From contig JAAWQM010000007.1 of assembly GCA_022800525.1 (NCBI GenBank), forward strand, positions 2,917 to 66,916: a stretch of DNA of 64,000 bases. The letters run 5' to 3'. The number at the start of each line of letters is the position of its first letter. Within the stretch, counting starts at the first letter, position 1. The notes under the pieces are model-generated. The model was not told the origin of the DNA, did not search any database, and saw nothing but the letters and a program-made list of their open reading frames with translations. Source of the stretch: Oscillospiraceae bacterium. Lineage in GTDB: Bacteria > Bacillota > Clostridia > Oscillospirales > Oscillospiraceae. The position numbers were made by a program, and so were the translations under genes. Below, piece by piece: positions 6,937-46,045 of the stretch.

Positions 6937-8484
6937 TCAATGGGATATAAGGATGAAGTCCAGATCGAATTCGGCGGGCTTCGTTTTTTTCGCCTTGTGG
7001 TAGGTGATCTGTTGGACCACTGTGCGCAGCAGGGCGTTTTTGTGGGCGGCATCGCTGGTGCGGTACGCGTCCAGGACAGTCTGAATATTCACAGCCTGAG
7101 CGGCTGGATTGCGGGTTCGGGCCTGCTCCAGGCGGAGCCGCGCGTTTTCCTGGCGGCGTTCCAGGTCCTCCAGCTTCGCCTTGACAACGGCCATGCGCTC
7201 CCGGTAGGTAGGCGGATCATATTCGCCTGTTTCCAGCAGCTCATGGAGCCGGGCCTTTTGCCGGGCGGCGGCGGCGGCTTCTCTGGTAATTGCGTCCAGC
7301 GTTTCCAGAAGGGGGGAGAGGTCCTGTGTGCGGACGGGCTTCTCCGGAGTGATTCCCGTCAGGACATCCTCCAGGTGGGCGAGGATGCGGGCCTCCACCA
7401 GATCAAATTTTGCGGAAGCGCAGCAGCCCTTCCTTGTGCAGAGCAGATATGCCTGCCCCTTCATGACCAGCCGCTGCATATGCTTCCCGCAGTTGGCGCA
7501 CTTCACCAGCCCGGCAAGGGGACTCCTGACCGTGCCGTCATTTCTGGCAGGATGATACCGGCCAGCCATGATGCCCTGCACCTTGCCGTACAGCTCTTCC
7601 TCTATAATGGGAGGGTGGAGTCCATCGGCAACAGTCCATTTTTCCCGTGGATTGCAGATGGTGATATGCTTGGGAATGCCATTGGCGTTCCTCCTGATAT
7701 GCGTTTTCTGGTCCCAGACAATCTTACCGATATAGGCGGGATTGCGGAGAATCTGCGCGACGCTGTTCCGGGAGAAGGCGTCGGAGCGGTGCGGGCGGGC
7801 GCCCATGGCGTTGACTTGGCTGGCAATGGACTGGCAGCCGTATCCGTCCGCGTACATGCTGAACATGATGCGCACAAACTTCGCCTCCGGCTCGTATATC
7901 TCCAGTGTGGGCCTCCGGTCAACGGTGGTCTTCCTGTATCCATAGGGGGCGTTGGCTACATAGCAGCCGTCCTGAATGGACCGCCTGAGCCCCCGCCGCA
8001 GTCGCTTGTTGATGATCTTATACTCCCGGCGGGACATGAAGGTCTTGAATTCCGCCAGCTCGTCGTCGATCTCGTCAGACAGATCGTAGACCTTATCCGG
8101 AGTAACGATCAAAGTACCGCTGTCCTTGAAAGCGTCCAGTATGATTCCCTGGTCCGTCATCCGTCCGCGGGAGAGACGGTCCAGATCCATGCAGAGCACG
8201 GCGTCATACTTACCGGCCTCCACGTCCTCCAGCAGACGAAGCATCTGCGGGCGGGCGTACAGACTCTCTCCGCTGACGACCTCCGGATAGTACGCCACAA
8301 TATCCAGGCCGTGGCGCTGGGCGCACTCATTGAGCCCCTGGCGGTGGCGGCGCAGGACCTCTTCCGTGTCCATACCCTCCTCCATACGGGATTTGCGGAG
8401 GTAGGCAGCGGCGGTCTGACCCAGCAGATCGGGGGTTGTGGATATGGGAATCACCTCCTGAAAGGATGACCGGTTCTGAAACAA
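6937..8484 (-). mobile_element. large serine recombinase (resolvase N-domain + recombinase domain + zinc ribbon + coiled coil)
   Basis: 515 aa. AAAYLRKSRMEE carries the catalytic Ser. DAVLCMDLDRLSRG, YVANAPYGYRK and zinc ribbon CANCGKHMQRL...CTRKGC follow, then a C-terminal coiled coil. Confidence 0.9.
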
Positions 8485-8930: not shown

Positions 8931-10232
8931 CTACAGGTTCCTCTTGTCATCCGTGGCTGGATGATCAATCAGCGTCCCGTCCTCCTGGAAGCGGGAGCCG
9001 TGGCAGGGACAGTCCCAGCTGCGCTCGGCGGCGTTGTATTTCAATGCGCAGCCCATATGGGGACAGCGGGGCGCGGTGGGCGTCAGCAGCCCCAGAACGG
9101 ACGCCAGCCCATTGACTGCCAGCTGGGGGCGGAGGACCGTCCGGGAGGGGGAAAATACAGCCTCACAGGGGTTATCCCGCCCAAGCGCCAAATCCGTCAG
9201 GAGCTTTGCCGCCGCCATGGCGGAGGTCATGCCCCACTTGTTGAAGCCCGTGGCGACATAGAGGTTGGGGGTATTTCTGGCGTACCGCCCGATATAGGGC
9301 GCGCCGTCCAGGGTCATGCAGTCCTGGGTGGCCCAGCGGGCGGCTTCCCGGGCGTCGGGCCAGTATTTCCGCGCGAAGTTCTCCAGCTCCTGCCAGCCGC
9401 CGCCGCGCCTGCCCGTCCTGTGACCGCCGCCGCCTATGAGGAGCAGGCCGCCGTAATTCCGGAAGGACAGCCCCTTCCCGTCTTCGTCCACATACATCCC
9501 GTTTACAGCCGGGGCGTTTTTCAGCGCCAGCACATAGGAGCGGCGCTGGTACAGCTTCAGGAAATAGCCGCCGTGCTTGTTCAGGAGCGGGAAGTGGGTG
9601 GCGATGATGATCTTCTCCGCCGAGATGGTGCCGCCGCTGGTGACCGCCGTTCCGGGGCCCAGCTCCAGGACCTTTGTGCGCTCGAAAATCCGCAGGCCCT
9701 TTGCGATGGCGGCCATGAATTTCAGAGGATGGAACTGCGCCTGGCGCGGGAATTTTACCGCCCCCGCTATGGGGAAGGGCAGAGGTGTTTCCGTGGCCTC
9801 CTCCGCCGGAAAGCCCAGGCGGGACAGAGCCTCCAGCTCCCGGTGAATTTTCTGCGGGCTGCCGGTGGAGTAGACAAAGGCGTCCTTCTCCTCAAAGCCG
9901 CAGTCGATGTCCCGGCACAGCTCACGGTACGCCTCCAGCGCGGACTGATTGGCCTCCAGATAGAGGCGGGCCTTTTCCACGCCGAATTCCCGGATAAGCT
10001 TGTCGTAGATCAGGCCGTGCTGGGATGTGATTTTCGCGGTGGTGTTTCTGGTAATGCCGCCGCCGGTGCGGTCCGCTTCCACCAGGGCGCAGTCCACCCC
10101 CGCCCGGGCCAGCTCATAGGCGCACAGGAGTCCGGCCATGCCGCCGCCTATGACCAGCACGCCGGTTCTCAGGTCTGAGCGCAGGGGTTCCGATCGGGGA
10201 AGCTGCGCCGTTTGGGTCCATATGGAGTCCAT
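8931..10232 (-). CDS. FAD-dependent oxidoreductase with C-terminal Rieske 2Fe-2S domain
   Basis: 433 aa. Dinucleotide fold VLVIGGGMAGL. C-terminal Rieske motifs CPHMGC and CPCHGS. Confidence 0.85.
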   Translation of the reverse strand: MDSIWTQTAQLPRSEPLRSDLRTGVLVIGGGMAGLLCAYELARAGVDCALVEADRTGGGITRNTTAKITSQHGLIYDKLIREFGVEKARLYLEANQSALEAYRELCRDIDCGFEEKDAFVYSTGSPQKIHRELEALSRLGFPAEEATETPLPFPIAGAVKFPRQAQFHPLKFMAAIAKGLRIFERTKVLELGPGTAVTSGGTISAEKIIIATHFPLLNKHGGYFLKLYQRRSYVLALKNAPAVNGMYVDEDGKGLSFRNYGGLLLIGGGGHRTGRRGGGWQELENFARKYWPDAREAARWATQDCMTLDGAPYIGRYARNTPNLYVATGFNKWGMTSAMAAAKLLTDLALGRDNPCEAVFSPSRTVLRPQLAVNGLASVLGLLTPTAPRCPHMGCALKYNAAERSWDCPCHGSRFQEDGTLIDHPATDDKRNL

Positions 10233-10356
10233 ACCATCACCTCAATGGGGTTAGGATGGCCGTAATTGGACGGATTATGCTCTCCCTCCGGCTTGTCTGG
10301 CGGGCGGATTTCTGCTATACTGACGCTGTGAAAACCAGAAGGGAAGAGGTGCGCTG

Positions 10357-11340
10357 ATGAAAATTGCAATTGTTGGGACCGGAAAGATCGTGGAGGATGT
10401 TCTCCCCCATCTTGCGGGGTGGGGCTGGGAGACGGCGGCGGTCTGCGCCACGGCGCGCAGCGCTGAGAAGGGGCGGGCCCTGGCCGCGCAGTGCGGCCAG
10501 CCGCCGGTATATACGGATTACGCCGCCATGCTGGAGGGCGCGGAGGCAGATGCGGTCTACATCGCCGTGCCCAACTCCCTGCATACGGAGATGGCGCGGC
10601 AGGCGCTCCGGGCGGGATGGAACGTCATTGCTGAGAAGCCCATGTCCAGCAATCTCCGGGAAGCGGAGGAGCTGGCGGCCCTGGCGGAAGTCAGGCGGCT
10701 GTTCCTGTATGAGGCCGTCACCACTGTCTATCAGCCGGATTACGCCGCGCTGCGGGAGCAGCTGCCCCAGGTGGGGGAGGTCAGGCTGGTCAGCTGCAAT
10801 TTCAGCCAGTACAGCAGCCGCTATGACGCCTTCCGCAGGGGAGAGGTCCCGGCGGCCTTTGACCCGGCGCGGTCCGGCGGGGCGCTGATGGACCTGAACC
10901 TGTATAACTTCCACTGGCTTGCGGGCCTGTTCGGGGAGCCGGAGGAGCTGGCGTATTCCGCCAACGTGGAGCGGGGGATTGATACCAGCGGGGTGGTGAC
11001 GCTGCGGTATCCTGGCTTCCAGGCGGTCAGCATCGCGGCCAAAGACTGCTCCGCTCCCAGCCGGTACGTCATCCAGGGGGCCGAAGGCTGTCTGACGCAG
11101 GATACCCCCGCCAACCTGTGCGGCGCGGTGACGCTGCGCCGGAAGGATGGCGGTGTGGAGCGCTTCCACACGCCGGTGGAGCACCGGATGGAGATGGAGT
11201 TCCGTGCGTTCGCCCGGCAGATGCAGGCGGGGGACCTGGCCGCCTGCTATGAAATGCTCCGGCGCAGCCTGCTGGTCAGCGGGCTGCTGACCAGGGCCCG
11301 GCAGTCTGCGGGAATCCGCTTCCCGGCGGACCGGGCGTAA
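10357..11340 (+). CDS. Gfo/Idh/MocA family oxidoreductase
   Basis: MKIAIVGTGKIVEDV Rossmann start and the characteristic VIAEKP motif. Confidence 0.85.
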   Translation: MKIAIVGTGKIVEDVLPHLAGWGWETAAVCATARSAEKGRALAAQCGQPPVYTDYAAMLEGAEADAVYIAVPNSLHTEMARQALRAGWNVIAEKPMSSNLREAEELAALAEVRRLFLYEAVTTVYQPDYAALREQLPQVGEVRLVSCNFSQYSSRYDAFRRGEVPAAFDPARSGGALMDLNLYNFHWLAGLFGEPEELAYSANVERGIDTSGVVTLRYPGFQAVSIAAKDCSAPSRYVIQGAEGCLTQDTPANLCGAVTLRRKDGGVERFHTPVEHRMEMEFRAFARQMQAGDLAACYEMLRRSLLVSGLLTRARQSAGIRFPADRA

Positions 11341-11346
11341 AACAGA

Positions 11347-11383
11347 AGCGGCGGCGGTCCCGTGTTCCCACGGGGCCGCCGCT
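11347..11383. terminator. GC-rich hairpin between convergent genes
   Basis: AGCGGCGGCGGTCCCGTG-TTCC-CACGGGGCCGCCGCT. Confidence 0.6.
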
Positions 11384-11396
11384 GTTATGAAAGGCG

Positions 11397-12155
11397 TTAA
11401 GGCTCCTGTCCCGGCTCCTCCCCGCCGTTGACCATGGCCTCGTCCTCCTCGGCCCCGGTCATGAGGGAGAGGAAGCGCAGCCGCCGGTCCCGGATGCGCA
11501 GCATCAGCGCGAAGGCCAGCAGCAGCGGCAGGCAGCACAGCAGGATGGCCGCCTCGCCCCAGGACTGGGAGAGGACGCCTCCGGCGGCCGCGCCGGCGAG
11601 GAAAAAGACGATGACGATGAAGTACACCGCCGCCTTGTGACGGCGGGAGTCCTCGCCGGTCTTCCGCCAGTAGTACAGGTTCTCCATGGCGCTGCGCAGG
11701 TTGCCGATGCACATGGTGGTGGCGTAGGAGCTGCCCTCCAGCTCCCGGAATGCCTCCACCTGCATGGCGCATACGAAGCTCACCAGCATGTTCGCCGGAA
11801 GGTTCCAGCTCTGGGGCATCCAGCTCACGCCCATCAGCAGGATGATCTCCACCAGCAGCACCGCGTGCCGCCAGTGCATGGCGATGCCTCTGCTGTGGAA
11901 GCGGGTGTGGATGACCTCCGCCATATACACCCCTCCGGCGAAGGCAATCAGCGGCATCAGGTACCTCAGGGCGATTTCCCAGTTGCCCAGCATCAGGTTC
12001 TGGCCCAGCAGGACGATGTTGCCGGTCTGGGCGTTGGCAAAGACCTCGTCACGGACATTGTAGGTGTAGGCGTCCTGTAAGCCGCCGGAGACGCTGAGCA
12101 GCGCCCCCACCAGGAGGGAATCGGAAGCCTGCTTCGCCCGGTATTTCTTTTCCAT
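11397..12155 (-). CDS. YoaK/DUF1275 family membrane protein
   Basis: 252 aa. SVSGGLQDAYTYNVRDEVFANAQTGNIVLLG is the typical DUF1275 N-terminus. Confidence 0.8.
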   Translation of the reverse strand: MEKKYRAKQASDSLLVGALLSVSGGLQDAYTYNVRDEVFANAQTGNIVLLGQNLMLGNWEIALRYLMPLIAFAGGVYMAEVIHTRFHSRGIAMHWRHAVLLVEIILLMGVSWMPQSWNLPANMLVSFVCAMQVEAFRELEGSSYATTMCIGNLRSAMENLYYWRKTGEDSRRHKAAVYFIVIVFFLAGAAAGGVLSQSWGEAAILLCCLPLLLAFALMLRIRDRRLRFLSLMTGAEEDEAMVNGGEEPGQEP

Positions 12156-12201
12156 AGAGTCACCTCCTGGTGTGGTGGATGAAGGGCCCCGCAGGGCGGT
12201 A

Positions 12202-13809
12202 TCAGAAATCCTTCTTCAGGGAGTTGTATGTGGGCAGCAGCCTGGGGGAGACCTTTTCCGAAGCGATGCCCGCCGCCTCCAGGCCCTGCCGGAACTGCTC
12301 CGCGTGGGCCAGGGACAGCTTTCCAGGCTGGACGCTCCTGCATTTATCGGCGGCGTTCCGCCCGGCGCTGCGGCCAAAGACGATGATGTCCAGCAGGCTG
12401 TTGCCCATCAGACGGTTGCGGCCATGGATGCCGCCCACCACCTCGCCTGCGGCGAAGAGGTTTTCCACGTCCGTCTGGCCGCCTGCGGTGATGTGCAGGC
12501 CGCCGTTCTGGTAGTGCAGGGTGGGGTAGACCAGGATGGGCTCCACCCGGATGTCGATGCCGTACTTGCCGAACATGCGCATCATGGCGGGGATACGCTT
12601 CTCGATGGCGCCCTTGCCGTGCTTCATCTCGATCATGGGGGTGTCCAGCCACACGGCGTATCCGGCGGGGGTCTTGACCCCGTTGCCCCGGTCGGAGCAC
12701 TCCCGGATGATGGCGGCGGCGGAGACGTCGCGGGTCTCCAGGGGGTTCATGAACGCCTCGCCGTTGGCGTTGATGAGCATCGCGCCCACGCTGCGGACCT
12801 TTTCCGTCACCAGCGCGCCGAAAATCTGCGCCGGGAAGGCCGCCCCGGTGGGGTGGTATTGCAGGGTATCGGCGTACAGCAGCTTCGCGCCCGCGCGGTA
12901 GCCCAGGATCAGGCCGTCGGCGGTGGCGCCGTAGTGGTTGGAGGTGGGGAAGCCCTGGTAGTGCAGCCGCCCCGCGCCGCCGGTGGCCAGGATGACCGTC
13001 CTGGCCCGGGCCAGCTTCAGCTCCCGGGTCTCCATATTCATCAGGACCGCGCCTGCGCATCTGCCGTTCTCGTCCAGTACCAGCTCAATGGCGGCGGTGA
13101 AGTCCACTACGGGGATGTTCCGGTTGAGGACCTCGTCCCGCAGGGTGCGCATGATCTCCGCGCCGGAGTAGTCCTTGGCCGCGTGCATCCGCTTCCGGGA
13201 GGTGCCGCCGCCGTGGGTGGTGATCATGGCGCCGTCGGGGGCCTTGTCGAACTCCACCCCCAGCTCGCTCAGCCACCGGATGGCCTCCGGGGCCTCCGTC
13301 ACCAGCTTTGCCAGCAGGTCCTTCTGGGCGGCGAAGTGTCCGCCGCCGTAGGCGTCCAGGAAGTGCTGGGCGGGGGAGTCGTTGGGCTTGTCGGCGGCCT
13401 GGATGCCGCCCTCCGCCATCATGGTGTTGGCGTCGCCCATGCGCAGCTTGGTTACCACCATGACCTTCGCCCCGGCCTGGTGGGCTTCAATCGCGGCGGA
13501 GGTCCCCGCGCCGCCGCCGCCGATGACCAGCACGTCCACGTCGTAGTCCGGCGCGGTCAGGTCCACGTCCGCCGCCGTAATGCGGGGGTTGGCCTGGAGC
13601 AGGTCCGCCAGCTCGTGGGGTACCTTGTCCCCCTTGTTGGGACCGGCCTGCAGGATTTGGAACTGGTCCTCCCGGTAGTCGGGATGGTAGGTTTTCAGCA
13701 GCTGGTCCTTCTCTTCGGCGGTCATGCGCCGGGGGTCCAGCTTCACGTTTTCCGCACGGGCGGCGGCCACTTTTTCAGCCGACGCCTGGATCACAGGATC
13801 AAGATACAT
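12202..13809 (-). CDS. soluble fumarate reductase/succinate dehydrogenase-type flavoprotein (FrdA-like)
   Basis: 535 aa. VLVIGGGGAGTSAA FAD fold preceded by a ~90-aa N-terminal extension. Motifs seen: LQYHPTG, TEKVRS (catalytic Arg position), PTLHYQNGG, HGRNRLMGNSL. Confidence 0.8.
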   Translation of the reverse strand: MYLDPVIQASAEKVAAARAENVKLDPRRMTAEEKDQLLKTYHPDYREDQFQILQAGPNKGDKVPHELADLLQANPRITAADVDLTAPDYDVDVLVIGGGGAGTSAAIEAHQAGAKVMVVTKLRMGDANTMMAEGGIQAADKPNDSPAQHFLDAYGGGHFAAQKDLLAKLVTEAPEAIRWLSELGVEFDKAPDGAMITTHGGGTSRKRMHAAKDYSGAEIMRTLRDEVLNRNIPVVDFTAAIELVLDENGRCAGAVLMNMETRELKLARARTVILATGGAGRLHYQGFPTSNHYGATADGLILGYRAGAKLLYADTLQYHPTGAAFPAQIFGALVTEKVRSVGAMLINANGEAFMNPLETRDVSAAAIIRECSDRGNGVKTPAGYAVWLDTPMIEMKHGKGAIEKRIPAMMRMFGKYGIDIRVEPILVYPTLHYQNGGLHITAGGQTDVENLFAAGEVVGGIHGRNRLMGNSLLDIIVFGRSAGRNAADKCRSVQPGKLSLAHAEQFRQGLEAAGIASEKVSPRLLPTYNSLKKDF

Positions 13810-13823
13810 GTCCGCAGCCCTCC

Positions 13824-14498
13824 TTATTTCTCAATTTCACGGTTGTTGTACAGCTCCTGCATCTCCTCGATGGACTTGCCCATCAGGCTCTCAATGAGCG
13901 GGATGAACTTGCCGTCCCGGATTTCCGCAATCCGCTCGTCCAGGTGATCGCAGTGGGGTGCCAGATATTTTCCGTTGAGCCGCCGCGCCAGCATCGCCAC
14001 CTGGGGGTGGGAGATGCCCGCCGGGCACCGGGAGGAGCACACGCCGCACATCACGCAGTCGAAGGACTCCTCGGCGCACTTCTCGTACTCGCCCCGCTGG
14101 GCATAGGCGATGTACTGCATCACGTCCAGGCCCTGGGTACACGCCTTGGTGCAGGCGCTGCAGCCCACGCAGGCGTAGATTTCAGGGTACAGCTGCATCA
14201 TGATCTGCTCGGTGGGCTTGACCTTTTCGATGTCATAGATTTCCTTCACCAGCGGGAAGAAGGGAAGGGCAGCTACGTACATGTTGTCCTCTACCTTGGT
14301 GGAGCAGGCCAGACAGCCCTTCAGCTCCCGGTCCCCGGCGATGCGGTAGATGGTGGCGCAGGCCCCGCAGAACCCGTTGCGGCACCCGCAGCCCCGGACC
14401 AGCTGATAGCCCGCGTACTCCATGGCCTCCATGATGGTCAGACTCTCGGGAACCTGATACCGCTTCCCGAAGAGATAAACAGTTACCATTTGTTCCAT
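13824..14498 (-). CDS. FrdB/SdhB-like iron-sulfur protein (2Fe-2S + two 4Fe-4S-type motifs)
   Basis: 224 aa. CGCRNGFCGAC...C plant-type 2Fe-2S motif, then CVGCSACTKAC and CVMCGVCSSRCP. Confidence 0.75.
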   Translation of the reverse strand: MEQMVTVYLFGKRYQVPESLTIMEAMEYAGYQLVRGCGCRNGFCGACATIYRIAGDRELKGCLACSTKVEDNMYVAALPFFPLVKEIYDIEKVKPTEQIMMQLYPEIYACVGCSACTKACTQGLDVMQYIAYAQRGEYEKCAEESFDCVMCGVCSSRCPAGISHPQVAMLARRLNGKYLAPHCDHLDERIAEIRDGKFIPLIESLMGKSIEEMQELYNNREIEK

Positions 14499-14520
14499 AT
14501 ATACAACTCCTCAAAAATGA

Positions 14521-14628
14521 ACGGACGAGGGAGTGTTGGACTCCGTCCAAACCTGCCAGGGGCCTTGCCCCTGGACCCCACGGCCTTTGAAAAGGCCGGC
14601 GAAACTTTTCTTATCGCTTCGCGTCCGT
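14521..14628 (+). repeat. modular multi-hairpin intergenic repeat, copy A (core 14531-14609)
   Basis: GAGTGTTGG..CCAA / CCAGGGG..CCCCTGG / GGCCTTTGAAAAGGCC / GCGAAACTTTT, flanked by ACGGACG...CGTCCGT. Shares its ends and hairpin layout with copies at 21045, 44953 and 63267. Confidence 0.8.
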
Positions 14629-14632
14629 GATC

Positions 14633-15460
14633 TCAGTACTCATCAGGCAATTGGTCCAGCTGGTCCAGCCGGAACACGGGACCGTCCTTGCAGACGTACT
14701 TGTCGCCGATGTTGCACCGCCCGCAGCGGCCCAGGGCGCACTTCATGCGCAGCTCCAGGGTGGTATAAATCTGCTCTCTCGGGAAGCCCTGCTCCATCAG
14801 CCCCGCCAGGGTGAATTTGATCATGACGGGCGGGCCGCACATGATGACCGTTTTTCCTGTATCGAACCCCAGCTCCTTGACGTAGTTGGGCACAAAGCCT
14901 ACGTGGCCGTCCCAGTCCGGCTGGGGGTTGTCGATGGTCAGATGGACGGAGATGCCGTCCTCTTTGCACCATTCGTCCAGGATTTCCTGATAGTCCACCA
15001 GATCGGCCTTGCTTCGGGAGCCGTAGACGATGTCCACGCTGCCGTAGCGGTCCCGGTAGTGCCGGACGTAGTTGATGACGCTCCGCAGGGGAGCCAGCCC
15101 GATGCCGCCCGCCACGAATACCAGGTCCTTTCCGGCAAACGCGGTATCCACCGGGAAGCCGTTGCCGTAGGGACCCCGCAGCGTCACCTGCTGCCCCGGC
15201 TCGACGGCGTGGAGCCAGTCGGTGACACAGCCGCACTTCTTGATAGAAAACTCCAGGTGTTCCTCGTTGGTAGGGGAGGAGGTAATCGAGAACAGAGCTT
15301 CCCCGATGCCCGGCATGGACAGCATGGCGCACTGTCCGGGGATATGGAGGAAGGGCTTTCTGCCGTCCAGACCCACCACCTGGAAGGTTTTTACGTCCGG
15401 GGTGTCCTGGCGGATGGCGGTCACCTGGGCCACCATGGGAATCAAAGCGTCGGGTCTCAT
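14633..15460 (-). CDS. flxA: FlxA-like FAD/NAD(P)H-binding 2Fe-2S oxidoreductase (AsrB/PyrK/HydG family)
   Basis: 275 aa from ATG (CAT 15458-15460), ATGA overlap with the upstream gene. FVAGGIGLAPL NAD-binding region. C-terminal CALGRCGRCNIG...C 2Fe-2S motif. Confidence 0.8.
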   Translation of the reverse strand: MRPDALIPMVAQVTAIRQDTPDVKTFQVVGLDGRKPFLHIPGQCAMLSMPGIGEALFSITSSPTNEEHLEFSIKKCGCVTDWLHAVEPGQQVTLRGPYGNGFPVDTAFAGKDLVFVAGGIGLAPLRSVINYVRHYRDRYGSVDIVYGSRSKADLVDYQEILDEWCKEDGISVHLTIDNPQPDWDGHVGFVPNYVKELGFDTGKTVIMCGPPVMIKFTLAGLMEQGFPREQIYTTLELRMKCALGRCGRCNIGDKYVCKDGPVFRLDQLDQLPDEY

Positions 15461-16461
15461 GCCTTCGCCTCCTCTCCCAGGGTCCTGGCAACCTTGACGA
15501 TGTTCATGGAAATGGGGCACTTTTGCAGGCACCGCCCGCAGCCCACGCACCCGAACTCGCCCTCGTGGCTGGAGGGATAGTATACCAGCTTGTGCATGAA
15601 CCGCTGCCGGAACCGTTCCAGCTGGGTAGGCCGGGGCTGACCGGCGGACATGAGGGTAAAGTCGGAGTACATGCAGCTGTCCCAGCAGCGGAACCGCTTC
15701 ACGCCGCCGCTGGTTTTGAAGTCCTTTACGTCGTAGCATTGGCAGGTGGGACACACGAAGGTGCAGGTCCCGCACCCCAGGCAGCTCTCCGCCAGGGACG
15801 CCCATTCCGGAGAATGGAACCGCTCCATCATGTGCTCCCCGCCGAACGCGCTCCAGTCCAGCTCCTTCAGGGGCAGGCGGTCAAAGACCGATTTGTCCTG
15901 TTCCGGCTTCTCGCCGTCCTTCAGCATGGGAAGGGACGCCAGCAGGGCTTCGCCCTTCTCCGTGTTGGCCCGCAGGTACAGCCAGCCGTCCGCCATCCAG
16001 CCCGACACGTCCCCGGCGGGGTCCGTGGGGTCGATGCCCAGGGCGGTGCAGAAGCAGGTCTCCTCCGGCTCGGTACAGGCCAGGGTCACCACTGTGGCGT
16101 GTTTCCTGCGGGTTTCGTAATACGAATCCACAGGATCGCAAAGGAATACTTTGTCCAGGATATCGAAGCTCCGGCAGTCGCAGGCCCGCACGCCGAAAAT
16201 CACAAACGGTTCGGCAGGGTCCCGGCTCTCGATGACCTCAATTTGCTTGCCGGTGACCTTGAAGTCCACAAGATTTTCCACCTGGGGAAAGAACAGGTCC
16301 TTCCCGCTGCGGTTGGTGTTCAGGGCGGCGGTCAGCTCCAGACCCTCGCGCCAGAGGGTAAACGCCGCCGTTTTGGCCTCCCCGGCGGGGATGTAGAGCT
16401 TCCGGTCCGCCGCGATGGCGGCAAAGAGAGCTTGCAGCTGAGAAACAGGGAGTTTTTTCAC
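15457..16461 (-). CDS. flxB: FlxB-like 4Fe-4S protein (AsrA / sulfhydrogenase beta family)
   Basis: 334 aa. CLGCGTCTFVCPTC and CVGCGRCLQKCP cluster motifs. Confidence 0.75.
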   Translation of the reverse strand: MKKLPVSQLQALFAAIAADRKLYIPAGEAKTAAFTLWREGLELTAALNTNRSGKDLFFPQVENLVDFKVTGKQIEVIESRDPAEPFVIFGVRACDCRSFDILDKVFLCDPVDSYYETRRKHATVVTLACTEPEETCFCTALGIDPTDPAGDVSGWMADGWLYLRANTEKGEALLASLPMLKDGEKPEQDKSVFDRLPLKELDWSAFGGEHMMERFHSPEWASLAESCLGCGTCTFVCPTCQCYDVKDFKTSGGVKRFRCWDSCMYSDFTLMSAGQPRPTQLERFRQRFMHKLVYYPSSHEGEFGCVGCGRCLQKCPISMNIVKVARTLGEEAKA

Positions 16462-17432
16462 CGATTTGTCCCCCTTTCATGGACGATGGAGGGCTCCGGG
16501 TCGTCCGTCTGGAAGTTCACCAGCGGAGGACGGGTCTCCATGTCCGCCCCGGCCTGATAATCGCCGTAGAGCTCGTTGATGTCCTTGATGAATTTCCGGT
16601 TGAGCAGGTGCAGGGGAATGTGCTGGGGGCAGACCCTGGAGCACTCGCCGCAGTCGGTGCAGCGTCCCGCCACGTGGAACGCCCGGATGATATGGAACAG
16701 GTTTTCCTCAAAGCTGTTGGCCGCCGCCTTGTTCTCCGCGCCGGAATCGGGGTTGTCGAACACGCACTTCTCGCAGGAGCAGGCGGGACACACGTTCCGG
16801 CAGGCGTTGCAGCGGATGCAGCGGCTCAGCTCATTGCGCCAGAAGGCAAACCGCTCGTCCGGCGTCATGGCCTCCAGCCTCGCCACCTCATCAAAGCGGG
16901 CGGATGCCAGCTCTTCGCCCTGGTCCCCGATGATCTCATCGCAGCCCAGCAGCTTCCGGCTCTTGCAGACCTTGCAGCGTTCCGCCAGCGCGGCGGCGCG
17001 GTCCATGGTCCTGTCGCCGTACATGGTGCGGACCAGCAGGGCCTCCCCCTGGTCCTCCGCGCCCAGAATGCCCTTCATTCCGGCGGCCTTCACCGCCTCG
17101 ATATCGCACATCCCCGCGCACTGTACGCCAACCGCGTACACGTTCTCCCGCAGGATGCGGTGCTCCTTCTGGAGCTGCTGGAAGGAACAGGTGTCGCAGG
17201 GCTTGAGGAACGCCCCCACCCTGCCGCCCTTCCGGCTCTCGGCAATGAGGTACTTCGATTGATTGGCCCCGCAGAAGGGGCCGTAGACGAACTCATTTTC
17301 AATTTCTTCCCTGCTGGTGAAGACGGCGGGGGTCACGTCGTAGAAAAACTCCCCGGCTTTCCAGCCCAGGACCCGGTCGCACGCGCCGTTTTCCAGCAGC
17401 TCGATGGCTTTCGCCTTTACTCGCTCTTGCAT
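16458..17432 (-). CDS. flxC: FlxC-like iron-sulfur protein
   Basis: 324 aa. CIRCNACRNVCPAC and CTDCGECSRVCP. ATGA overlap with flxB. Confidence 0.7.
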   Translation of the reverse strand: MQERVKAKAIELLENGACDRVLGWKAGEFFYDVTPAVFTSREEIENEFVYGPFCGANQSKYLIAESRKGGRVGAFLKPCDTCSFQQLQKEHRILRENVYAVGVQCAGMCDIEAVKAAGMKGILGAEDQGEALLVRTMYGDRTMDRAAALAERCKVCKSRKLLGCDEIIGDQGEELASARFDEVARLEAMTPDERFAFWRNELSRCIRCNACRNVCPACSCEKCVFDNPDSGAENKAAANSFEENLFHIIRAFHVAGRCTDCGECSRVCPQHIPLHLLNRKFIKDINELYGDYQAGADMETRPPLVNFQTDDPEPSIVHERGTNR

Positions 17433-17857
17433 CGCAGGTCCTCCAATCTCTTATTCTCGCCCAGGCGGGTGACGGTCTCCACAAAATCGTTCATGGTGGC
17501 GGCGAACTTCGCGCCCTCGGCGGCGGAGACCCACTCCACCCTGGTCCGCTCCCGCTCGATGCCCAGATAGTCCAGCATGGAGAACAGCAGCGTCATGCGC
17601 CTGCGGGCGTAGTAGTTGCCGGTGGTGTAGTGGCAGTCGCCGGGGTGGCAGCCGCACAGGATCACGCCGTCCGCGCCCCGCTGGAAGGCCCGCAGGATGA
17701 ACAGCGGGTTCAGGCGGCAGGAGCAGGGGATACGGATGATCTTCACGTCGGCGGGGTATTGCAGCCGGTTGGTGCCCGCCAGGTCCGCGCCCGCGTAGGA
17801 GCACCAGTTGCAGCAGAAGGCCACGATGGTGGGCTTGAAGGTTTCGTTTACTTGCAT
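17417..17857 (-). CDS. flxD: MvhD/FlxD-type methyl-viologen-reducing hydrogenase delta subunit
   Basis: 146 aa from internal ATG (CAT 17855-17857). IVAFCCNWCSYAGADLAG...IRIPCSCRLNP...ILCGCHPGDCHY is the MvhD signature. Confidence 0.85.
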   Translation of the reverse strand: MQVNETFKPTIVAFCCNWCSYAGADLAGTNRLQYPADVKIIRIPCSCRLNPLFILRAFQRGADGVILCGCHPGDCHYTTGNYYARRRMTLLFSMLDYLGIERERTRVEWVSAAEGAKFAATMNDFVETVTRLGENKRLEDLRCKSE

Positions 17858-19839
17858 ATGGCGTCCACCTCCGACATGATCTGGGCGTTGGAGAATCCGG
17901 CCAGGTCCATGGCCCCGGACGGGCAGGCCACGGTACACGCGCCGCAGCCCTGGCACACCGCCGGGTTCACCTGGGCCACCCGGCGGACCAGCGTGGTCCG
18001 GTTGGGACCCCGGAACTCCTTGTCGATATAGCTGATGGCCCCGTAGGGACAGACCTTCTCACAGGCCGAACAGCCGTTGCACATCAGCTCGTTGCTGCTT
18101 GCCACGCAGGGGTTGCAGGTCAGATGGTCCTTCACCAGCAGGCCGATGACCTTGCTGGCGGCGGCTCCCGCCTGGGCCACGGTCTCCGGGATGTCCTTGG
18201 GACCCTGGCAGGCCCCGGAGAGGAACACGCCCGCCGTGGGGCTCTCCACAGGCCGCAGCTTGGGGTGGGCCTCAGTGAAGAAATCGTTGGTGTCCATGGA
18301 CGCGGTCAGCATGGTCGCCAGAGGCCGTGCGCTCTTGTCCGGCTCGATGGCGGCGGCGAGGACCACCATGTCCGCGTCGATATGCAGCTGCCGTCCGCCC
18401 AGCAGGTCGCTGGCCTGGACCTTCAGCTTGCCGTTCTCGGGGACCACCTTGCCCACCATGCCCTTGATGTAATGCACGCCGTAGTCCTCCACCGCGCGGC
18501 GGTAGAACTCGTCAAAGTTCTTGCCGGGGGTGCGGACGTCGATGTAAAACACATATACCTCCGTATCGGGGTATTTTTCCCGGGTCAGCATGGCGTGCTT
18601 GGCGGTATACATGCAGCAGATTTTGGAGCAGTAGGGCTTGCCCTTCTCCCCGCCGTCGCAGCGGGAGCCGACGCACTGGACAAACACCAGCGTGTGGGGA
18701 TGCGCGCCGTCGGAGGGCCGCAGCAGCGTCCCGCCGGTGGGACCGGCGGCGTTCATCAGCCGCTCGAACTCCAGGCTCGTCACCACGTCCGGGCTCTGGG
18801 CGTAGGCAAACTCGCCGAACTTCTCCATGGAGATGGGCTCGAAGCCGGTGGCGGCTACAATCGCGCCGTACTCCCGCTCCATGATCTCGTCCTGCTGCCG
18901 GTAGTCGATGGCCCCGGCGGTGCAGACCTTGGAGCACACGCCGCACTTGCCGGTTTTCAGCATGGTGCAGTAGTTGGGGTCGATGGTGGCCACCTTGGGC
19001 ACCGCCTGGGCGAAGGGGATGTAGATGGCCCTGCGGTTGTCCAGCCCCAGGTTGAACTCGTTGGGGACCTTCTTCTGGGGACACTTCTCGGTACACAGGC
19101 CGCAGCCGGTACACTTGGTCTCGTCCACAAACCGGGCCTTTTTACGGATTTTTACAGAGAAATTGCCCACAAAGCCCTTCACGGACTCCACCTCGGCGTA
19201 GGAAATGATGCTGATATTCTCATTCTGCGCCGCGTCCACCATCTTGGGGGTCAGGATGCAGGCCGCGCAGTCTAGGGTGGGGAAGGTCTTGTCGATCTGG
19301 GTCATCTTGCCGCCGATGGTGGGCTTCTTCTCCACGATGTCCACCGGGAACCCGGCGTCGGCGATGTCCAGGGCGGTCTGGATGCCCGCGATGCCGCCGC
19401 CGATGACCAGGGCGCGTTTGATGACGGGGCTGGTCCCGGCGGTGAGGGGGGCGTTGAGCTGGACCTTTGCGATGGCGGCGCGGCCCAGGATGATGGCCTT
19501 TTCCGTGCCGGTCTGCTTGTCCTTGTGAATCCAGGAGCACTGCTCCCGGATGTTGGCAATCTCCACCATGTAGGGGTTCAGCCCCGCCTTCTCGCAGGTC
19601 TTGCGGAAGGTGGCCTCGTGCATCCGGGGGGAGCAGGAGCAGACCACCACGCCGGTCAGAGCGAACTCCCTGATCTTCTCCTGGATCATATCCTGGCCCG
19701 CCTGGGAGCACATGTACTGGTAATTGGCGGAGAACACCACGCCCGGCTCATGGGCCAGCGCGTCGGAAACGGCCTGCACATCCACCGTTGCGGCGATGTT
19801 GCTGCCGCACCAGCATACGAATACGCCAATTTTCTGCAT
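17848..19839 (-). CDS. hdrA: HdrA-type heterodisulfide reductase subunit A (FAD + multiple 4Fe-4S)
   Basis: 663 aa. N-terminal VFVCWCGSNIA, FAD fold ALVIGGGIAGIQTALD, several CxxCxxCxxxCP ferredoxin motifs. Confidence 0.9.
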   Translation of the reverse strand: MQKIGVFVCWCGSNIAATVDVQAVSDALAHEPGVVFSANYQYMCSQAGQDMIQEKIREFALTGVVVCSCSPRMHEATFRKTCEKAGLNPYMVEIANIREQCSWIHKDKQTGTEKAIILGRAAIAKVQLNAPLTAGTSPVIKRALVIGGGIAGIQTALDIADAGFPVDIVEKKPTIGGKMTQIDKTFPTLDCAACILTPKMVDAAQNENISIISYAEVESVKGFVGNFSVKIRKKARFVDETKCTGCGLCTEKCPQKKVPNEFNLGLDNRRAIYIPFAQAVPKVATIDPNYCTMLKTGKCGVCSKVCTAGAIDYRQQDEIMEREYGAIVAATGFEPISMEKFGEFAYAQSPDVVTSLEFERLMNAAGPTGGTLLRPSDGAHPHTLVFVQCVGSRCDGGEKGKPYCSKICCMYTAKHAMLTREKYPDTEVYVFYIDVRTPGKNFDEFYRRAVEDYGVHYIKGMVGKVVPENGKLKVQASDLLGGRQLHIDADMVVLAAAIEPDKSARPLATMLTASMDTNDFFTEAHPKLRPVESPTAGVFLSGACQGPKDIPETVAQAGAAASKVIGLLVKDHLTCNPCVASSNELMCNGCSACEKVCPYGAISYIDKEFRGPNRTTLVRRVAQVNPAVCQGCGACTVACPSGAMDLAGFSNAQIMSEVDAICK

Positions 19840-19853
19840 TCTGTTCTCTCACC

Positions 19854-20234
19854 TCACTTTCTGTATTTTCGGAACGCGCTGGTGATGGCCTGCTGGGGCA
19901 GGTCCTCGTCCAGCAGGGCGGGGATTTGCTCCGGCTTCAGATGGTTCCTGTCCTGCTGGCGGATGACGGCCAGCCGCACCGCCTCAATGAGCCTGGCGGG
20001 CTCCACGCTGCGGGGGCACCGCTCCAGGCAGGCGAAGCAGCTCAGGCACATATAGATGCCCCTGGACGCCATCAGCTCCTCAACGCGCCCGGTCTCCACC
20101 ATGTCCACGAACTGGTGGGGATGGTACTCCATCTCGCCGTAGGCGGGACAGGCGGCGGTACACTTGCCGCACTTCATGCACTTGCGGGGGTTCACGCCGG
20201 AAATGCGCTTGACGGTTTCCGTCATATCCATCAT
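19854..20234 (-). CDS. hdrC: HdrC-type 4Fe-4S subunit
   Basis: 126 aa. CMKCGKCTAACP and CLSCFACLERCP. Confidence 0.85.
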   Translation of the reverse strand: MMDMTETVKRISGVNPRKCMKCGKCTAACPAYGEMEYHPHQFVDMVETGRVEELMASRGIYMCLSCFACLERCPRSVEPARLIEAVRLAVIRQQDRNHLKPEQIPALLDEDLPQQAITSAFRKYRK

Positions 20235-21022
20235 GCGCCCACCTCCTTTACGCCCAGAGCCTCCGCCAGAAGCTCCGTGAAGTACCGCACCGGCAGCTTC
20301 CCGCCGCCGTTGACCCGCAGATTATAGAGGCACAGCGGGCAGGCGGTGATGACCTCCTCCGCGCCCAGGGCGGCGGCGTTGTCCAGCACCTTCCCGGCCT
20401 GCCGGGAGGCGCAGTCCTTGTTCTCGATGGTGGTGTAGCCGCCGCAGCACTCGTTGCGCATGGCGTACACCACCGGCTCGGCCCCGATGGCCCGGATGAA
20501 GTCCTCCAGGATGGTGGGGTTCTCCGGGTCGTCGAAGCCCATTTCACTGCTGGGCCGCAGCAGCAGGCAGCCGTAATAGGCCCCGATCCTCCGGCCCGCC
20601 AGCGGGTTCGCCACCCGCTTTTTCAGCTCCTCGAAGCCCACCCGGTCCCGCAGGACCTCCAGGTAGTGGAGGACCCTGGTCTCTCCGGCGTAGGGCTTTT
20701 CCGGCTTTAAGTAGTTGTTGACGCGGGAACGGATGGTCTCGTCGGTCTGCATGTCACGGTTGACCCGCTTGATGACATGGTGGCAGGCGGAGCAGAGCGT
20801 CACCAGGTCCGTCTCCAGCTCCCCGGCGGACGCCAGGGCCCGCACGGCGGACAGCTTGGTGGCGATCTCATCCTTCGCCTGGGGGTACACCGCGCCGCAG
20901 CACTGCCATTGCGGCAGCTCCCGCAGCTCGATGCCCAGAGCCTCCATGGACCTCCGGCCCCAGATATCCAGGTCCTTCCCCTTTGTTTTCAGGGTGCAGC
21001 CTGGGAAATAGGAATATGTCAC
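20231..21022 (-). CDS. hdrB: HdrB-type subunit with two CCG domains
   Basis: GTG start (CAC 21020-21022) after AAAGGAGAA. TYSYFPGCTLK, WQCCGAV and NECCGGY CCG motifs. ATGA overlap with hdrC. Confidence 0.85.
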   Translation of the reverse strand: MTYSYFPGCTLKTKGKDLDIWGRRSMEALGIELRELPQWQCCGAVYPQAKDEIATKLSAVRALASAGELETDLVTLCSACHHVIKRVNRDMQTDETIRSRVNNYLKPEKPYAGETRVLHYLEVLRDRVGFEELKKRVANPLAGRRIGAYYGCLLLRPSSEMGFDDPENPTILEDFIRAIGAEPVVYAMRNECCGGYTTIENKDCASRQAGKVLDNAAALGAEEVITACPLCLYNLRVNGGGKLPVRYFTELLAEALGVKEVGA

Positions 21023-21044
21023 GGTTGATTCTCCTTTAACGAGA

Positions 21045-21231
21045 GAGTGTTGGGCGTTGCCCAGGCGGTCCTTTGGACCGCCGGACCGGTCGTTGGCCGG
21101 AGGCCAATGACGGTCCCTGGACCCTGCCGCCTTTGCGATTGTGCAATGACCGCATCGAGCGGTCATGCACAATCAGATTTTGCGCAGCCATTCGATATGG
21201 CTGTGCAAAATCGTAGGCGGGCGAAACTTTT
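21045..21231 (+). repeat. modular multi-hairpin repeat, expanded copy B (187 nt, nested hairpins)
   Basis: Same termini as copy A (GAGTGTTGG ... GCGAAACTTTT). Extra nested stems: GGCGGTCC-TTT-GGACCGCC, GATTGTGCAATGACCG/CGGTCATGCACAATC, ATTTTGCGCAGCCAT/ATGGCTGTGCAAAAT. Confidence 0.8.
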
Positions 21232-21247
21232 ATCCTTTGAGTCTGGC

Positions 21248-22195
21248 TCAGAACTCGATAGCCGCGATAGTCTCCTTGAGCTTGTCTGCGCTGCGGCGGA
21301 GCTTGGCCAGCTCGTCCTCGGTGAGGTCGTTGCTGATCTTGCCCCGCACGCCGGTGCTGTCCACCAGATTCAGCACGCTCAGGCATACGTCGCTGATGCC
21401 GTACTCGCCGTTCATCATGGTGGAGATGGTCAGAGCCGTGCCCGCGCCGTTGAAGATGCAGCGCACGATGTGGCATACGGCCATGGCGATGGCGTAGTTG
21501 GTGACGCCCTTGGCGTTGATGACCACCGCGCCGGAGGTGCGGACCGTCTCCTCCATCCTGCCGTACTCCCCGGCGAAATCGATCTCCTCACTGTGGGGGG
21601 CGTGGCCCTTGTACTTGCTGATGTGGTTGTTGGCGATGGTCGCCAGGGACCAGGGGACGAAGGAGGAGTCGCCATGCTCGCCGTAGACGTGGGCGTGGAC
21701 GTTCTTGGGGCTGATGTGGAACTCCTTGGCCAGCTCCGCCTGGAGCCGGGCGGTGTCCAGCACCGTGCCGGAGCCGATGATGCGCTCCGCCGGGATGCCG
21801 GAAATCTTGTGGAACACGTAGGTCATCACGTCCACGGGGTTGGAGACGATGATGTAGATGGCGCCGGGGGCGTGGGGCACCACCTTGGAGGCGATGTCCT
21901 TGAGGATGTTCACGTTGGTCTGGGCCAGCTCCAGCCGGGTCTGTCCGGGCTTGCGGGGCAGGCCGGAGGTGATGATGACAATAGCGGAGTCCGCCGCGTC
22001 CTCATACTGGCCGGAGCGCACGATGGCGGGCGCGCCGAAGGAGGTGCCCTGGTAGATGTCCATGGCCTCGCCGAACGCCTTGTTCTCGTCGATGTCGATG
22101 AGGACAATGTCGGTGGCGGTGCCGGTGACCACCATATCGTTGGCGATGCTGGCGCCCACGCTCCCGGCGCCGATGATGGTGATTTTGTTGCCCAT
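21248..22195 (-). CDS. LDH/MDH-family L-2-hydroxyacid dehydrogenase (LDH scaffold with Arg at the substrate-specificity position)
   Basis: 315 aa from ATG (CAT 22193-22195). KITIIGAGSVGAS NAD fold, GEHGDS catalytic His. The loop ITSGLPRKPGQTRLEL has Arg (codon 21953-21955) where LDHs have Gln. Confidence 0.85.
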   Translation of the reverse strand: MGNKITIIGAGSVGASIANDMVVTGTATDIVLIDIDENKAFGEAMDIYQGTSFGAPAIVRSGQYEDAADSAIVIITSGLPRKPGQTRLELAQTNVNILKDIASKVVPHAPGAIYIIVSNPVDVMTYVFHKISGIPAERIIGSGTVLDTARLQAELAKEFHISPKNVHAHVYGEHGDSSFVPWSLATIANNHISKYKGHAPHSEEIDFAGEYGRMEETVRTSGAVVINAKGVTNYAIAMAVCHIVRCIFNGAGTALTISTMMNGEYGISDVCLSVLNLVDSTGVRGKISNDLTEDELAKLRRSADKLKETIAAIEF

Positions 22196-22539
22196 AGCTG
22201 AATGATCTCCTTTACAGTGATAGTCCGTGAATGAAAGGTATGGAGGACCCCGTCCTGATTGTTTATATTTTAACAAACATGCGGGGAAAAGTAAAGGGGG
22301 CGGCAATGGGAAATTTGTAGATTATTTAACGAACAGCGGGCCTGCTTATGGCGGAATGCACAAAGAAGGAAATTTCCGGTTTCCGGCGGACCGTTTCCGC
22401 CGGAAACCGCCGCCCGTCGCGGGAGCCCGCCCCGGCAAAATGGATTTTCCCCTCCATGCCCCATATTCTCCTTGCCAGACCGCGCCGCTTCCCCTATAAT
22501 AGGGGAAGAAACCATTCATGTCAACAGGAGGCATCTGGT

Positions 22540-36651: not shown

Positions 36652-36970
36652 TCCCGGGGGACAGGATATGGAACAGAATTTCCGGCTGTTCCGGGAAATA
36701 TCCCTTGAGAAGTATGGAGGCCGGGAACGGTACGGCAGAGAAATGCCGCCTATCAGAGAGCTGCTGGCGGAAGACGTTCCCGGCGGCTGAAAAAACGATG
36801 TCCGCTCAGGATATCTTTGGAAAAACAGGCCCGGCGGCAAGGGCGGGGCGTGGAACAAGAGCCGCCTGTACAGCGGAAGCTCCGTATACAGGCGGCTTTC
36901 ATTTGGTTTTGCTGCGGCTTCAGAGATCGATATGGAACGCGGGAACGGGCAAGTACAGACGGGCCATGGA

Positions 36971-38023: not shown

Positions 38024-38175
38024 AAAATGGATTCTCCTTCTGTTTTTAAGGAAAGTATACCAAAACAATGCCTGAAATGCAAGCATACGCGGGCATTTTG
38101 AGAGGGAAAAGGCGTTGTATAATCCGCTGGTTTTCCGACAAAATAAAAATATGGCTAGAATTATTTACAAAATAC

Positions 38176-44952: not shown

Positions 44953-45031
44953 AAAAGTTTCGTCCACCTTTTCAAAGGTGGCGGAGTCCAGAGGCGGAGC
45001 CTCTGGTGGGTTTGGGCAAAGCCCAACACTC
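44953..45031 (-). repeat. modular multi-hairpin intergenic repeat, copy C (canonical 79-nt form, inverted orientation)
   Basis: Reverse complement reads GAGTGTTGGGCTTTGCCCAAACCCACCAGAGGCTCCGCCTCTGGACTCCGCCACCTTTGAAAAGGTGGACGAAACTTTT. Confidence 0.85.
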
Positions 45032-45058
45032 TTTCGTAATAAAAAGGGGGGGATTTCT

Positions 45059-45995: not shown

Positions 45996-46045
45996 TCCAA
46001 GCCGCTTATTCCGGGCGGCAACAAAACGCGCTGAGGTGATCTCCT

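Follow-up and report, generated by a model that had tools for sequence, protein, structure and literature searches.

The 64,000 nucleotides of genomic DNA from an Oscillospiraceae bacterium studied here (GenBank assembly GCA_022800525.1, contig JAAWQM010000007.1, positions 2,917 to 66,916; hereafter the window, with positions counted from its first letter) contain ten intact minus-strand open reading frames (ORFs) in the order mdh, hdrB, hdrC, hdrA, mvhD/flxD, flxC, flxB, flxA, frdB-like and frdA-like. The enzyme encoded by this locus is probably an NADH:fumarate oxidoreductase that is cytoplasmic, independent of quinones and based on a Flx-Hdr core of flavin-based electron bifurcation. The initial annotation had proposed a soluble bifurcating or confurcating complex joining NADH, ferredoxin and a C4-dicarboxylate couple and fed by the conversion of oxaloacetate to malate, and had left the acceptor open. 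In silico, such a complex is supported by the colinearity of the core genes in related loci, by a fumarase gene (fumC) within the operon of most relatives, by the residues retained in the FrdA-like protein and by a malate-specifying arginine in the dehydrogenase. Of the two directions, the bifurcating, fumarate-reducing one is favoured and the confurcating one less so, since the flavin adenine dinucleotide (FAD) of the FrdA-like protein is predicted to be non-covalent.

To collect related loci, the family alignment was run once against the representative genomes of the GTDB species, and the best 80 loci, with FrdA-like proteins 71-84% identical to that of the window, were compared; presence and order of genes were determined by tblastn with the window proteins, and those loci were counted that had enough flanking sequence. 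FrdA-like loci occur in at least 80 species of gut and rumen Oscillospirales. The nine-gene core hdrB-hdrC-hdrA-mvhD-flxC-flxB-flxA-frdB-frdA is colinear in 56 of 56 loci, such that the conserved synteny of the Frd pair with hdr/flx, which the initial annotation had named as its own test, is borne out, and none of the partial loci lacks an expected core gene. The median gap is 16 nt between flxA and frdB (76 relatives) and 12 nt between frdB and frdA. Directly before hdrB, 52 of the 54 evaluable loci carry fumC, encoding a class II fumarase of 458 aa (Lyase_1 and FumaraseC_C domains), and mdh precedes fumC in 45 of the 54. An Asp-Al_Ex (AAE-family) transporter gene is situated 3' of frdA in 46 of 68 loci; the AAE family includes a succinate exporter. 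With fumC, mdh and the transporter inside it, the consensus operon mdh-fumC-hdrBCA-flxDCBA-frdBA-transporter would cover every step of the reductive branch, from oxaloacetate to the export of succinate, and these three genes of the relatives identify fumarate as the probable acceptor. The cultured strain Yeguia hominis NSJ-40 possesses the full mdh-fumC-hdr-flx-frd operon. In the window species and in one other, mdh lies directly before hdrB; the window species appears to have lost both fumC and the transporter from the operon, and no remnant of fumC was detected by tblastn in the gap between mdh and hdrB.

Concerning the FrdA-like flavoprotein (12202-13809, minus strand, as for all operon genes; 535 aa), the Pfam domain FAD_binding_2 covers residues 92-472, and residues 89-499 align with Escherichia coli FrdA (1kf6/3p4p). 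The equivalents of the E. coli residues H232, T244/E245, R248, R287, H355 and R390, which serve in binding both carboxylates and in proton delivery, are all retained. In the family alignment, which comprises representatives of the FrdA-like family down to 40% identity, H319, E336, R339, R360, H432 and R466 are invariant and correspond to H232, E245, R248, R287, H355 and R390, respectively; the equivalent of Thr244 is not among the invariant columns listed. His44, the covalent FAD histidine of E. coli FrdA, is replaced by Asn in the FrdA-like protein (motif GDANT), the FAD of which is therefore presumably bound non-covalently. Loss of this histidine is typical of fumarate reducers unable to oxidise succinate. 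The protein begins with a family-specific extension of around 90 aa, and Pfam gives no match to the C-terminal Sdh/Frd domain Succ_DH_flav_C (PF02910). Its top NCBIfam match is TfrA, with 343 bits against a cut-off of 718, the NadB model TIGR00551 yields 278 bits against a cut-off of 453, and the scores are well under every cut-off of the curated TfrA, Sdh/Frd and NadB models. Since all these cut-offs are missed and defining features are lacking, the FrdA-like protein and its relatives form a distinct family of soluble fumarate-reductase-like enzymes.

The FrdB-like iron-sulfur (Fe-S) subunit (13824-14498, 224 aa; Pfam Fer2_4 and Fer4_7/Fer4_9) is laid out like SdhB: a [2Fe-2S] ferredoxin-like domain at the N terminus precedes two CxxCxxCxxxC motifs, both of them complete. 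Its gene adjoins frdA-like in every relative locus surveyed, and a natural FrdB-FrdA fusion protein exists. As the initial annotation had it, the pair comes without a membrane anchor, no anchor gene being present at the locus. Three known enzymes were considered for the pair and rejected: classical Sdh/Frd, because of the missing covalent-FAD histidine, Succ_DH_flav_C domain, [3Fe-4S] motif and anchor and the scores under the cut-offs; TfrAB, because of the scores under the cut-offs and of an FrdB that is not a fusion of SdhB-like and CCG parts; and NadB (L-aspartate oxidase), because TIGR00551 stays under its cut-off and the flavoprotein is always paired, once even fused, with an Fe-S subunit.

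It is very unlikely that the pair acts on another substrate (L-aspartate as NadB does, or another enoate) or that the complex runs backwards, oxidising succinate by confurcation. NadB consists of a single subunit, and the Fe-S partner of the FrdA-like protein, the lost covalent-FAD histidine and the presence of fumC and mdh in the operon of most species all speak against it, as does Pseudoclostridium thermosuccinogenes, which makes succinate and expresses a corresponding operon strongly. These points outweigh the scores of the FrdA-like protein against L-aspartate oxidase models, which nearly equal those against Frd/Sdh while all curated cut-offs are missed, the Pfam name of the AAE family, which refers to an aspartate:alanine exchanger, and the window without fumarase.

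The first gene (21248-22195, 315 aa; Pfam Ldh_1_N and Ldh_1_C) encodes a predicted NAD-dependent malate dehydrogenase of the lactate dehydrogenase (LDH)-like clade. The protein scores as L-LDH in NCBIfam, yet carries the motif GLPRKPGQTR, and its Arg81 is the equivalent of LDH position 102 (Gln102). Malate specificity is set by the switch from Gln102 to Arg, and Arg81 is likewise found in Ccel_0137, a clostridial malate dehydrogenase assigned by experiment (PMC3268733). The malate-specifying Arg is kept in 37 of 37 operon-linked homologues; under the published rule, the malate specificity suspected in the initial annotation is well supported, and the protein would group with the clostridial LDH-like malate dehydrogenases of the Ccel_0137/Cthe_0345 type, which share the Arg at the Gln102-equivalent position. 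The best solved-structure match is PDB 1y6j, deposited as "L-lactate dehydrogenase" of Clostridium thermocellum; this structure likewise has Arg at the specificity position (ANRKPGETR) and could in fact represent that species' malate dehydrogenase.

The seven genes between mdh and the Frd pair encode the Hdr and Flx subunits. HdrB (20231-21022, 263 aa) contains two copies of the Pfam CCG domain, and both CCG motifs are complete (cysteines 9, 41, 42, 77 and 80, and 152, 192, 193, 228 and 231); in NCBIfam, SdhE of methylmenaquinol:fumarate reductase ranks top with 149 bits, followed by the HdrB model with 138 bits, both under their cut-off. HdrC (19854-20234, 126 aa; Fer4_8, Fer4_17) has two [4Fe-4S] motifs and reaches 63.7 bits in NCBIfam, under the cut-off of 160. 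HdrA (17848-19839, 663 aa), a flavoprotein with several [4Fe-4S] clusters (Fer4 domains, FAD-binding Rossmann fold), is full-length, matching NCBIfam HdrA2 with 785 bits over model positions 1-641, and is the presumed site of bifurcation. To our knowledge, bifurcation is seen in all HdrA-containing complexes of this type that have been characterised. MvhD/FlxD (17417-17857, 146 aa; FlpD, E = 2.4e-55) is the [2Fe-2S] connector, FlxC (16458-17432, 324 aa; Fer4_8) an Fe-S protein that is syntenic in all evaluable relatives, FlxB (15457-16461, 334 aa; Fer4_22) an AsrA/ShyB-like Fe-S protein with 172 bits to NCBIfam ShyB, under the cut-off, and FlxA (14633-15460, 275 aa; FAD_binding_6, NAD_binding_1, DHODB_Fe-S_bind) the NAD(P)H-binding FAD/[2Fe-2S] input subunit, AsrB/HydG-like in NCBIfam. 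For all ten genes, the domain content found in the Pfam and NCBIfam searches agrees with the labels previously assigned.

From these subunits, the following electron path is proposed for the putative complex. Malate dehydrogenase would convert oxaloacetate to malate, and fumarase, for which most relatives have fumC in the operon and which the window species would encode elsewhere or lack, would supply fumarate. NADH would be oxidised at FlxA, and the electrons would pass via FlxB, FlxC and FlxD (MvhD) to the FAD of HdrA, where the pair would be split: the high-potential electron would run through HdrC, HdrB, the clusters of the FrdB-like protein and the non-covalent FAD of the FrdA-like protein to fumarate, which would be reduced to succinate, and the low-potential electron would reduce ferredoxin. 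Overall, 2 NADH, fumarate and oxidised ferredoxin would yield 2 NAD+, succinate and reduced ferredoxin; the latter could be used by Rnf or a hydrogenase, and succinate would leave the cell, in most relatives, through the AAE-type exporter. The potential of ferredoxin is near -420 mV. Those of the other two couples are +33 mV for fumarate/succinate and -320 mV for NAD+/NADH (PMC5861303). Calculated from these potentials, the four-electron reaction would be exergonic by around 50 kJ/mol.

It is quite unlikely that the enzyme is instead a non-bifurcating soluble NADH:fumarate reductase, in which Flx and Hdr serve as a mere Fe-S wire and ferredoxin is not reduced. It would be hard to explain why seven additional subunits, among them a full-length HdrA that has ferredoxin-type domains, are conserved in 56 of 56 loci, the 350-mV drop from NADH to fumarate would go to waste, and characterised HdrA complexes of such a type bifurcate (PMC5861303). 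A plain NADH input is nevertheless workable, as a relative with 49% identity pairs FrdBA with a NuoF-like NADH module, and the annotated window genes include no ferredoxin-using partner. In this relative (GCA_018697835.1 and a contig from ENA; 9366-12891), frdB and frdA are followed by the NuoF-like gene (Complex1_51K, NADH_4Fe-4S) with overlapping stop and start codons in a proteobacterial-looking context, and the three genes are a candidate for a three-subunit soluble NADH:fumarate reductase. In another cluster (contig SRR24270839_51196, 811-9771), a 55% identical FrdA-like relative is Hdr-linked without Flx genes, the order being a 2-oxoacid:ferredoxin oxidoreductase of four subunits, hdrA, mvhD, hdrC, hdrB, frdB and frdA; this cluster may encode a form of the Hdr-Frd complex that is linked to ferredoxin or to a 2-oxoacid. 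More distant FrdA-like relatives stand alone or just with FrdB, and no Hdr linkage is found around the relatives of at most 50% identity that were examined (P0130, P0132, P0133 and P0147); Hdr coupling is therefore confined to the clade of at least around 55% identity. Given these varied neighbours, FrdBA would seem to behave as a terminal module that is plugged into varied electron-input modules, with the Hdr core as its partner in the closest clades.

Concerning the transfer from HdrB to the FrdB-like protein, a direct wire appears more likely than a thiol intermediate, because the FrdB-like protein has no CCG domain in Pfam or NCBIfam, no carrier gene is conserved, HdrB matches SdhE best, and TfrB of methanogens amounts to a fusion of the same three modules. 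In type E enzymes, the HdrB-like SdhE does no more than exchange electrons with SdhB. A two-step thiol shuttle, modelled on Flx-Hdr/DsrC of Desulfovibrio and on TfrAB of methanogens, is unlikely: With electrons from NADH, Flx-Hdr would reduce ferredoxin together with a low-molecular-weight or protein disulfide at HdrB, and the thiol would be re-oxidised in a reaction of the thiol:fumarate reductase type. Both CCG motifs of HdrB, which form the disulfide-reducing site, are complete as this would require, and the top NCBIfam matches of the FrdA-like and FrdB-like proteins are TfrA and TfrB; these matches lie far under the cut-offs, however (343 versus 718 bits for TfrA and 40 versus 385 bits for TfrB, the latter over the N-terminal 2Fe-2S part alone), the FrdB-like protein lacks a CCG domain of its own for thiol oxidation, the operon has no conserved gene for a DsrC-like or other carrier, and the highest score of HdrB is that against the SdhE model.

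The two reference systems for this step differ from the window locus in the arrangement of the same modules. TfrAB of methanogens is likewise soluble and quinone-independent and consists of an Frd-type flavoprotein, an SdhB-like Fe-S module and CCG domains; in TfrB, however, the SdhB-like and CCG parts are combined in one polypeptide, whereas in the window the CCG domains reside on a separate HdrB within HdrABC/Flx, and the donor of TfrAB is CoM-SH plus CoB-SH, unlike the NADH proposed here. The type E enzymes SdhABE/MfrABE combine a two-CCG, HdrB-like SdhE, the model best matched by the window HdrB, with an SdhA/SdhB pair, but they are quinone-linked, membrane-associated and equipped with covalent FAD, whereas the window locus has HdrA/Flx modules, no anchor and a presumably non-covalent FAD.

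The architecture as well as the idea of a bifurcating fumarate reductase are not new, both having been proposed in 2019-2020 for P. thermosuccinogenes. The proposal reportedly goes back to a 2019 preprint by Koendjbiharie and van Kranenburg. The "succinate operon" of this species comprises fumC, Flx-Hdr (CDQ83_RS03330-60), a fumarate reductase (RS03320-25) and a small hypothetical gene, and has been proposed to couple fumarate reduction to ferredoxin reduction, driven by NADH (PMC7282089, citing the preprint); it is highly expressed, co-regulated and around fourfold up at low CO2 (PMC7282089). The reductase was not targeted in the CRISPR interference paper on this species. Both operons share the order hdrB, hdrC, a five-gene block from hdrA to flxA, frdB and frdA, and the sizes are similar, with around 261, 108, 225 and 534 aa and a block of 5.35 kb in P. 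thermosuccinogenes versus 263, 126, 224 and 535 aa and 5.21 kb in the window (supplement coordinates, PMC7282089). Despite this similarity there are differences: The operon of P. thermosuccinogenes begins with fumC, whereas in the window mdh stands in front and a repeat-filled gap of 225 nt takes the place of fumC; 3' of frdA follows a DUF1275 gene in the window versus a gene for an 83-aa hypothetical protein in P. thermosuccinogenes; and two inserted hairpin repeats are found in the window but not in P. thermosuccinogenes, a thermophile as opposed to the mesophilic gut Oscillospiraceae host of the window. The window operon thus looks like a derived, fumC-less form of the P. thermosuccinogenes-type operon. 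For Oscillospiraceae and Ruminococcus, the literature gave nothing relevant on the operon beyond PMC7282089 and a 2024 bioRxiv preprint, which in a passing STRING remark calls the HdrA-Sdh/Frd link in Ruminococcus champanellensis "very unusual"; no description of the wide distribution in gut and rumen Oscillospirales was found in the literature.

FlxABCD-HdrABC of Desulfovibrio vulgaris (Ramos et al. 2015) possesses the same seven-subunit domain set as the window, where the order is inverted (hdrBCA-flxDCBA). In D. vulgaris the presumed acceptor is a DsrC-type disulfide in the context of a sulfate reducer, whereas neither DsrC nor dsr, apr or qmo genes are among the annotated genes of the window and of the 10-kb flanks of the relatives; the earlier statement that the window holds no DsrC, CoM/CoB or sulfate-reduction gene is thus correct for its annotated genes. 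Furthermore, Flx-Hdr of D. vulgaris goes with an alcohol dehydrogenase, whereas the window module goes with the fumarate reductase pair and C4-dicarboxylate enzymes. MvhAGD-HdrABC, one of the HdrA-based bifurcating complexes, has the HdrA-MvhD-HdrC-HdrB core in common with the window and, as in the functional analogue Bcd-EtfAB, splits a mid-potential two-electron donor between ferredoxin and a high-potential acceptor by the same logic (PMC5861303); H2 enters there via Mvh and CoM-S-S-CoB is reduced at HdrB, whereas in the window NADH would enter via Flx and fumarate would be reached via the added flavoprotein.

Several observations weigh against the proposed bifurcating fumarate reductase. 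No biochemical proof of such an enzyme was found in the searchable literature, and the likeness to P. thermosuccinogenes rests on gene order and sizes, not on sequence identity. The full disulfide-reducing site kept in HdrB is compatible with a thiol/disulfide intermediate, and the annotated genes of the 64-kb window include no ferredoxin-consuming partner (Rnf, Ech or hydrogenase). The FrdB-like protein matches TfrB and SdhB weakly and in their N-terminal parts, and its AlphaFold2 model (28-sequence alignment; mean predicted local distance difference test 55, predicted template modelling score 0.40) is too poor for a fold search. Finally, the local pathway is incomplete, as the window operon has neither fumC nor the AAE transporter and tblastn over the full 64 kb yields no fumarase, in line with the initial annotation.

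As to regulation, a promoter-like site (TTTACT, 17 nt, TAAAAT, with an extended TG) is situated at 22267-22295 on the minus strand, around 70 nt 5' of the mdh start codon; it was recognised by a consensus scan alone, and a second candidate lies at 22524-22496. The -10 box of the putative operon promoter is overlapped by a Rex-operator-like palindrome at 22259-22276, TTGTTAAAATATAAACAA in minus-strand reading, with one mismatch to TTGTTAANNNNTTAACAA, which we take to be the Rex consensus. It is the sole match in the 64 kb, where 0.01 would be expected. In 10 of 55 related loci, similar boxes are situated at most 300 nt 5' of the gene that opens the operon, and further ones, several in number, between mdh and fumC, the overall number of matches being 25 in 1.29 Mb, and in four loci (L028, L032, L049 and L052) a Rex repressor gene (Put_DNA-bind_N and CoA_binding) is found around 360-435 nt 3' of frdA. 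The box at the promoter, the enrichment in relatives and the rex genes beside four loci suggest that the operon is probably repressed by Rex at low NADH/NAD+ and induced as NADH accumulates.

The ten genes lie at the coordinates originally given, and their boundaries are identical in independent gene calls on six contigs from metagenomes or metagenome-assembled genomes with the same locus (protein identity 98-100%). Each gene is preceded by a Shine-Dalgarno sequence and none contains an internal stop; hdrB and flxB begin with GTG. Base by base, two of the three ATGA overlaps reported before are present, at 15457-15460 (flxB/flxA) and 20231-20234 (hdrB/hdrC), whereas 16458-16461 reads GTGA, because the start codon of flxB is GTG; the overlaps of 16 nt at 17417-17432 and of 10 nt at 17848-17857 are both found, as is the 14-nt gap between frdB-like and frdA-like (13810-13823), and a further gap of 14 nt separates hdrC from hdrA (19840-19853). 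On the same strand, 46 nt 3' of frdA-like, follows an eleventh gene (11397-12155) for a DUF1275 membrane protein of 252 aa (Pfam DUF1275, 192 bits) with its own ribosome-binding site AGGAGG; it stands where relatives have the AAE transporter and probably belongs to the operon. In the public record, the locus is annotated just as "FAD-binding protein" and "(2Fe-2S)-binding protein".

The two long gaps, described as repeat-filled in the initial annotation, indeed each hold one copy of a dispersed three-hairpin repeat without terminator features. This repeat is around 85 nt long and forms three hairpins between conserved ends, from 5'-ATAAAAGTTTCGCC to CCAACACTCYCTCGT-3'. One copy (14525-14608, fold z = -3.3, with the shared 5' and 3' motifs) is situated in the flxA-frdB gap of 134 nt (14499-14632, minus strand); another (21039-21230), with nested hairpin insertions, nearly fills the mdh-hdrB gap of 225 nt (21023-21247, minus strand; fold energy -111 kcal/mol, z = -9.0), where relatives have fumC; and a third with matching ends lies at 44954-45037 on the plus strand. 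The copies are always situated just past a stop codon and oriented with the flanking genes, and they differ by compensatory changes in all three stems, as read from the sequences and their alignment. The repeat was not found in the loci of other species, and an Rfam scan of 11-23.5 kb (E <= 1) gave nothing credible in the gaps. A role as intrinsic terminators was rejected, as the terminator scan detected no T-run terminator in either gap; partial attenuation of transcription by the repeats is possible. Both gaps represent species-specific insertions and not conserved regulatory features.

Judged from the sources of close homologues and from the housekeeping genes of the window, the host, with a high GC content (around 62%), is probably a spore-forming gut bacterium. 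Elsewhere in the window, a gene at 8931-10232 (minus strand) encodes an FAD-dependent oxidoreductase of 433 aa in which a DAO domain is joined to a Rieske [2Fe-2S] domain at the C terminus, an unusual fusion, and adjoins a gene for a GFO/IDH/MocA oxidoreductase (10357-11340, plus strand). A large serine recombinase (Resolvase and Recombinase domains; 6937-8484, minus strand) and an IstB-like ATPase (28825-29640, plus strand) suggest mobile-element remnants near the operon. An ORF of 642 aa without Pfam match (61246-63174, plus strand) contains direct repeats (61931-62168 and 62525-62750) with a period of around 590 nt and 70-75% identity, and probably encodes a repeat-domain protein. Two further ORFs, at 36932-38101 (plus strand) and 45947-48661 (minus strand), have no Pfam match either; the latter exhibits a low GC content at third codon positions and may not be a real gene.

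Returning to the bifurcating NADH:fumarate oxidoreductase, it is conceivable, if somewhat short of probable, that the non-cubane clusters of HdrB reduce no disulfide but pass electrons straight to the FrdB-like protein, that the enzyme constitutes a new bifurcating class with fumarate as acceptor, and that it provides the main succinate route and a hidden form of energy conservation (by way of ferredoxin, with Rnf or hydrogenase) in a large group of gut and rumen Oscillospirales that lack menaquinone, among them succinate producers of the Ruminococcus flavefaciens type. This enzyme class is hypothetical and appears to be ecologically widespread; cultured carriers of the full operon, e.g., Y. 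hominis NSJ-40, would suit the missing biochemistry. If the proposal is true, fumarate is to be added to the high-potential acceptors used in flavin-based bifurcation, alongside crotonyl-CoA, caffeyl-CoA and the heterodisulfide CoM-S-S-CoB, and succinate formation with energy gain is explained in strictly fermentative Clostridia that have neither quinones nor cytochromes. Metabolic models of succinate and hydrogen flow in the gut and rumen probably miss this operon, because it is poorly annotated yet strictly conserved in at least 80 species.

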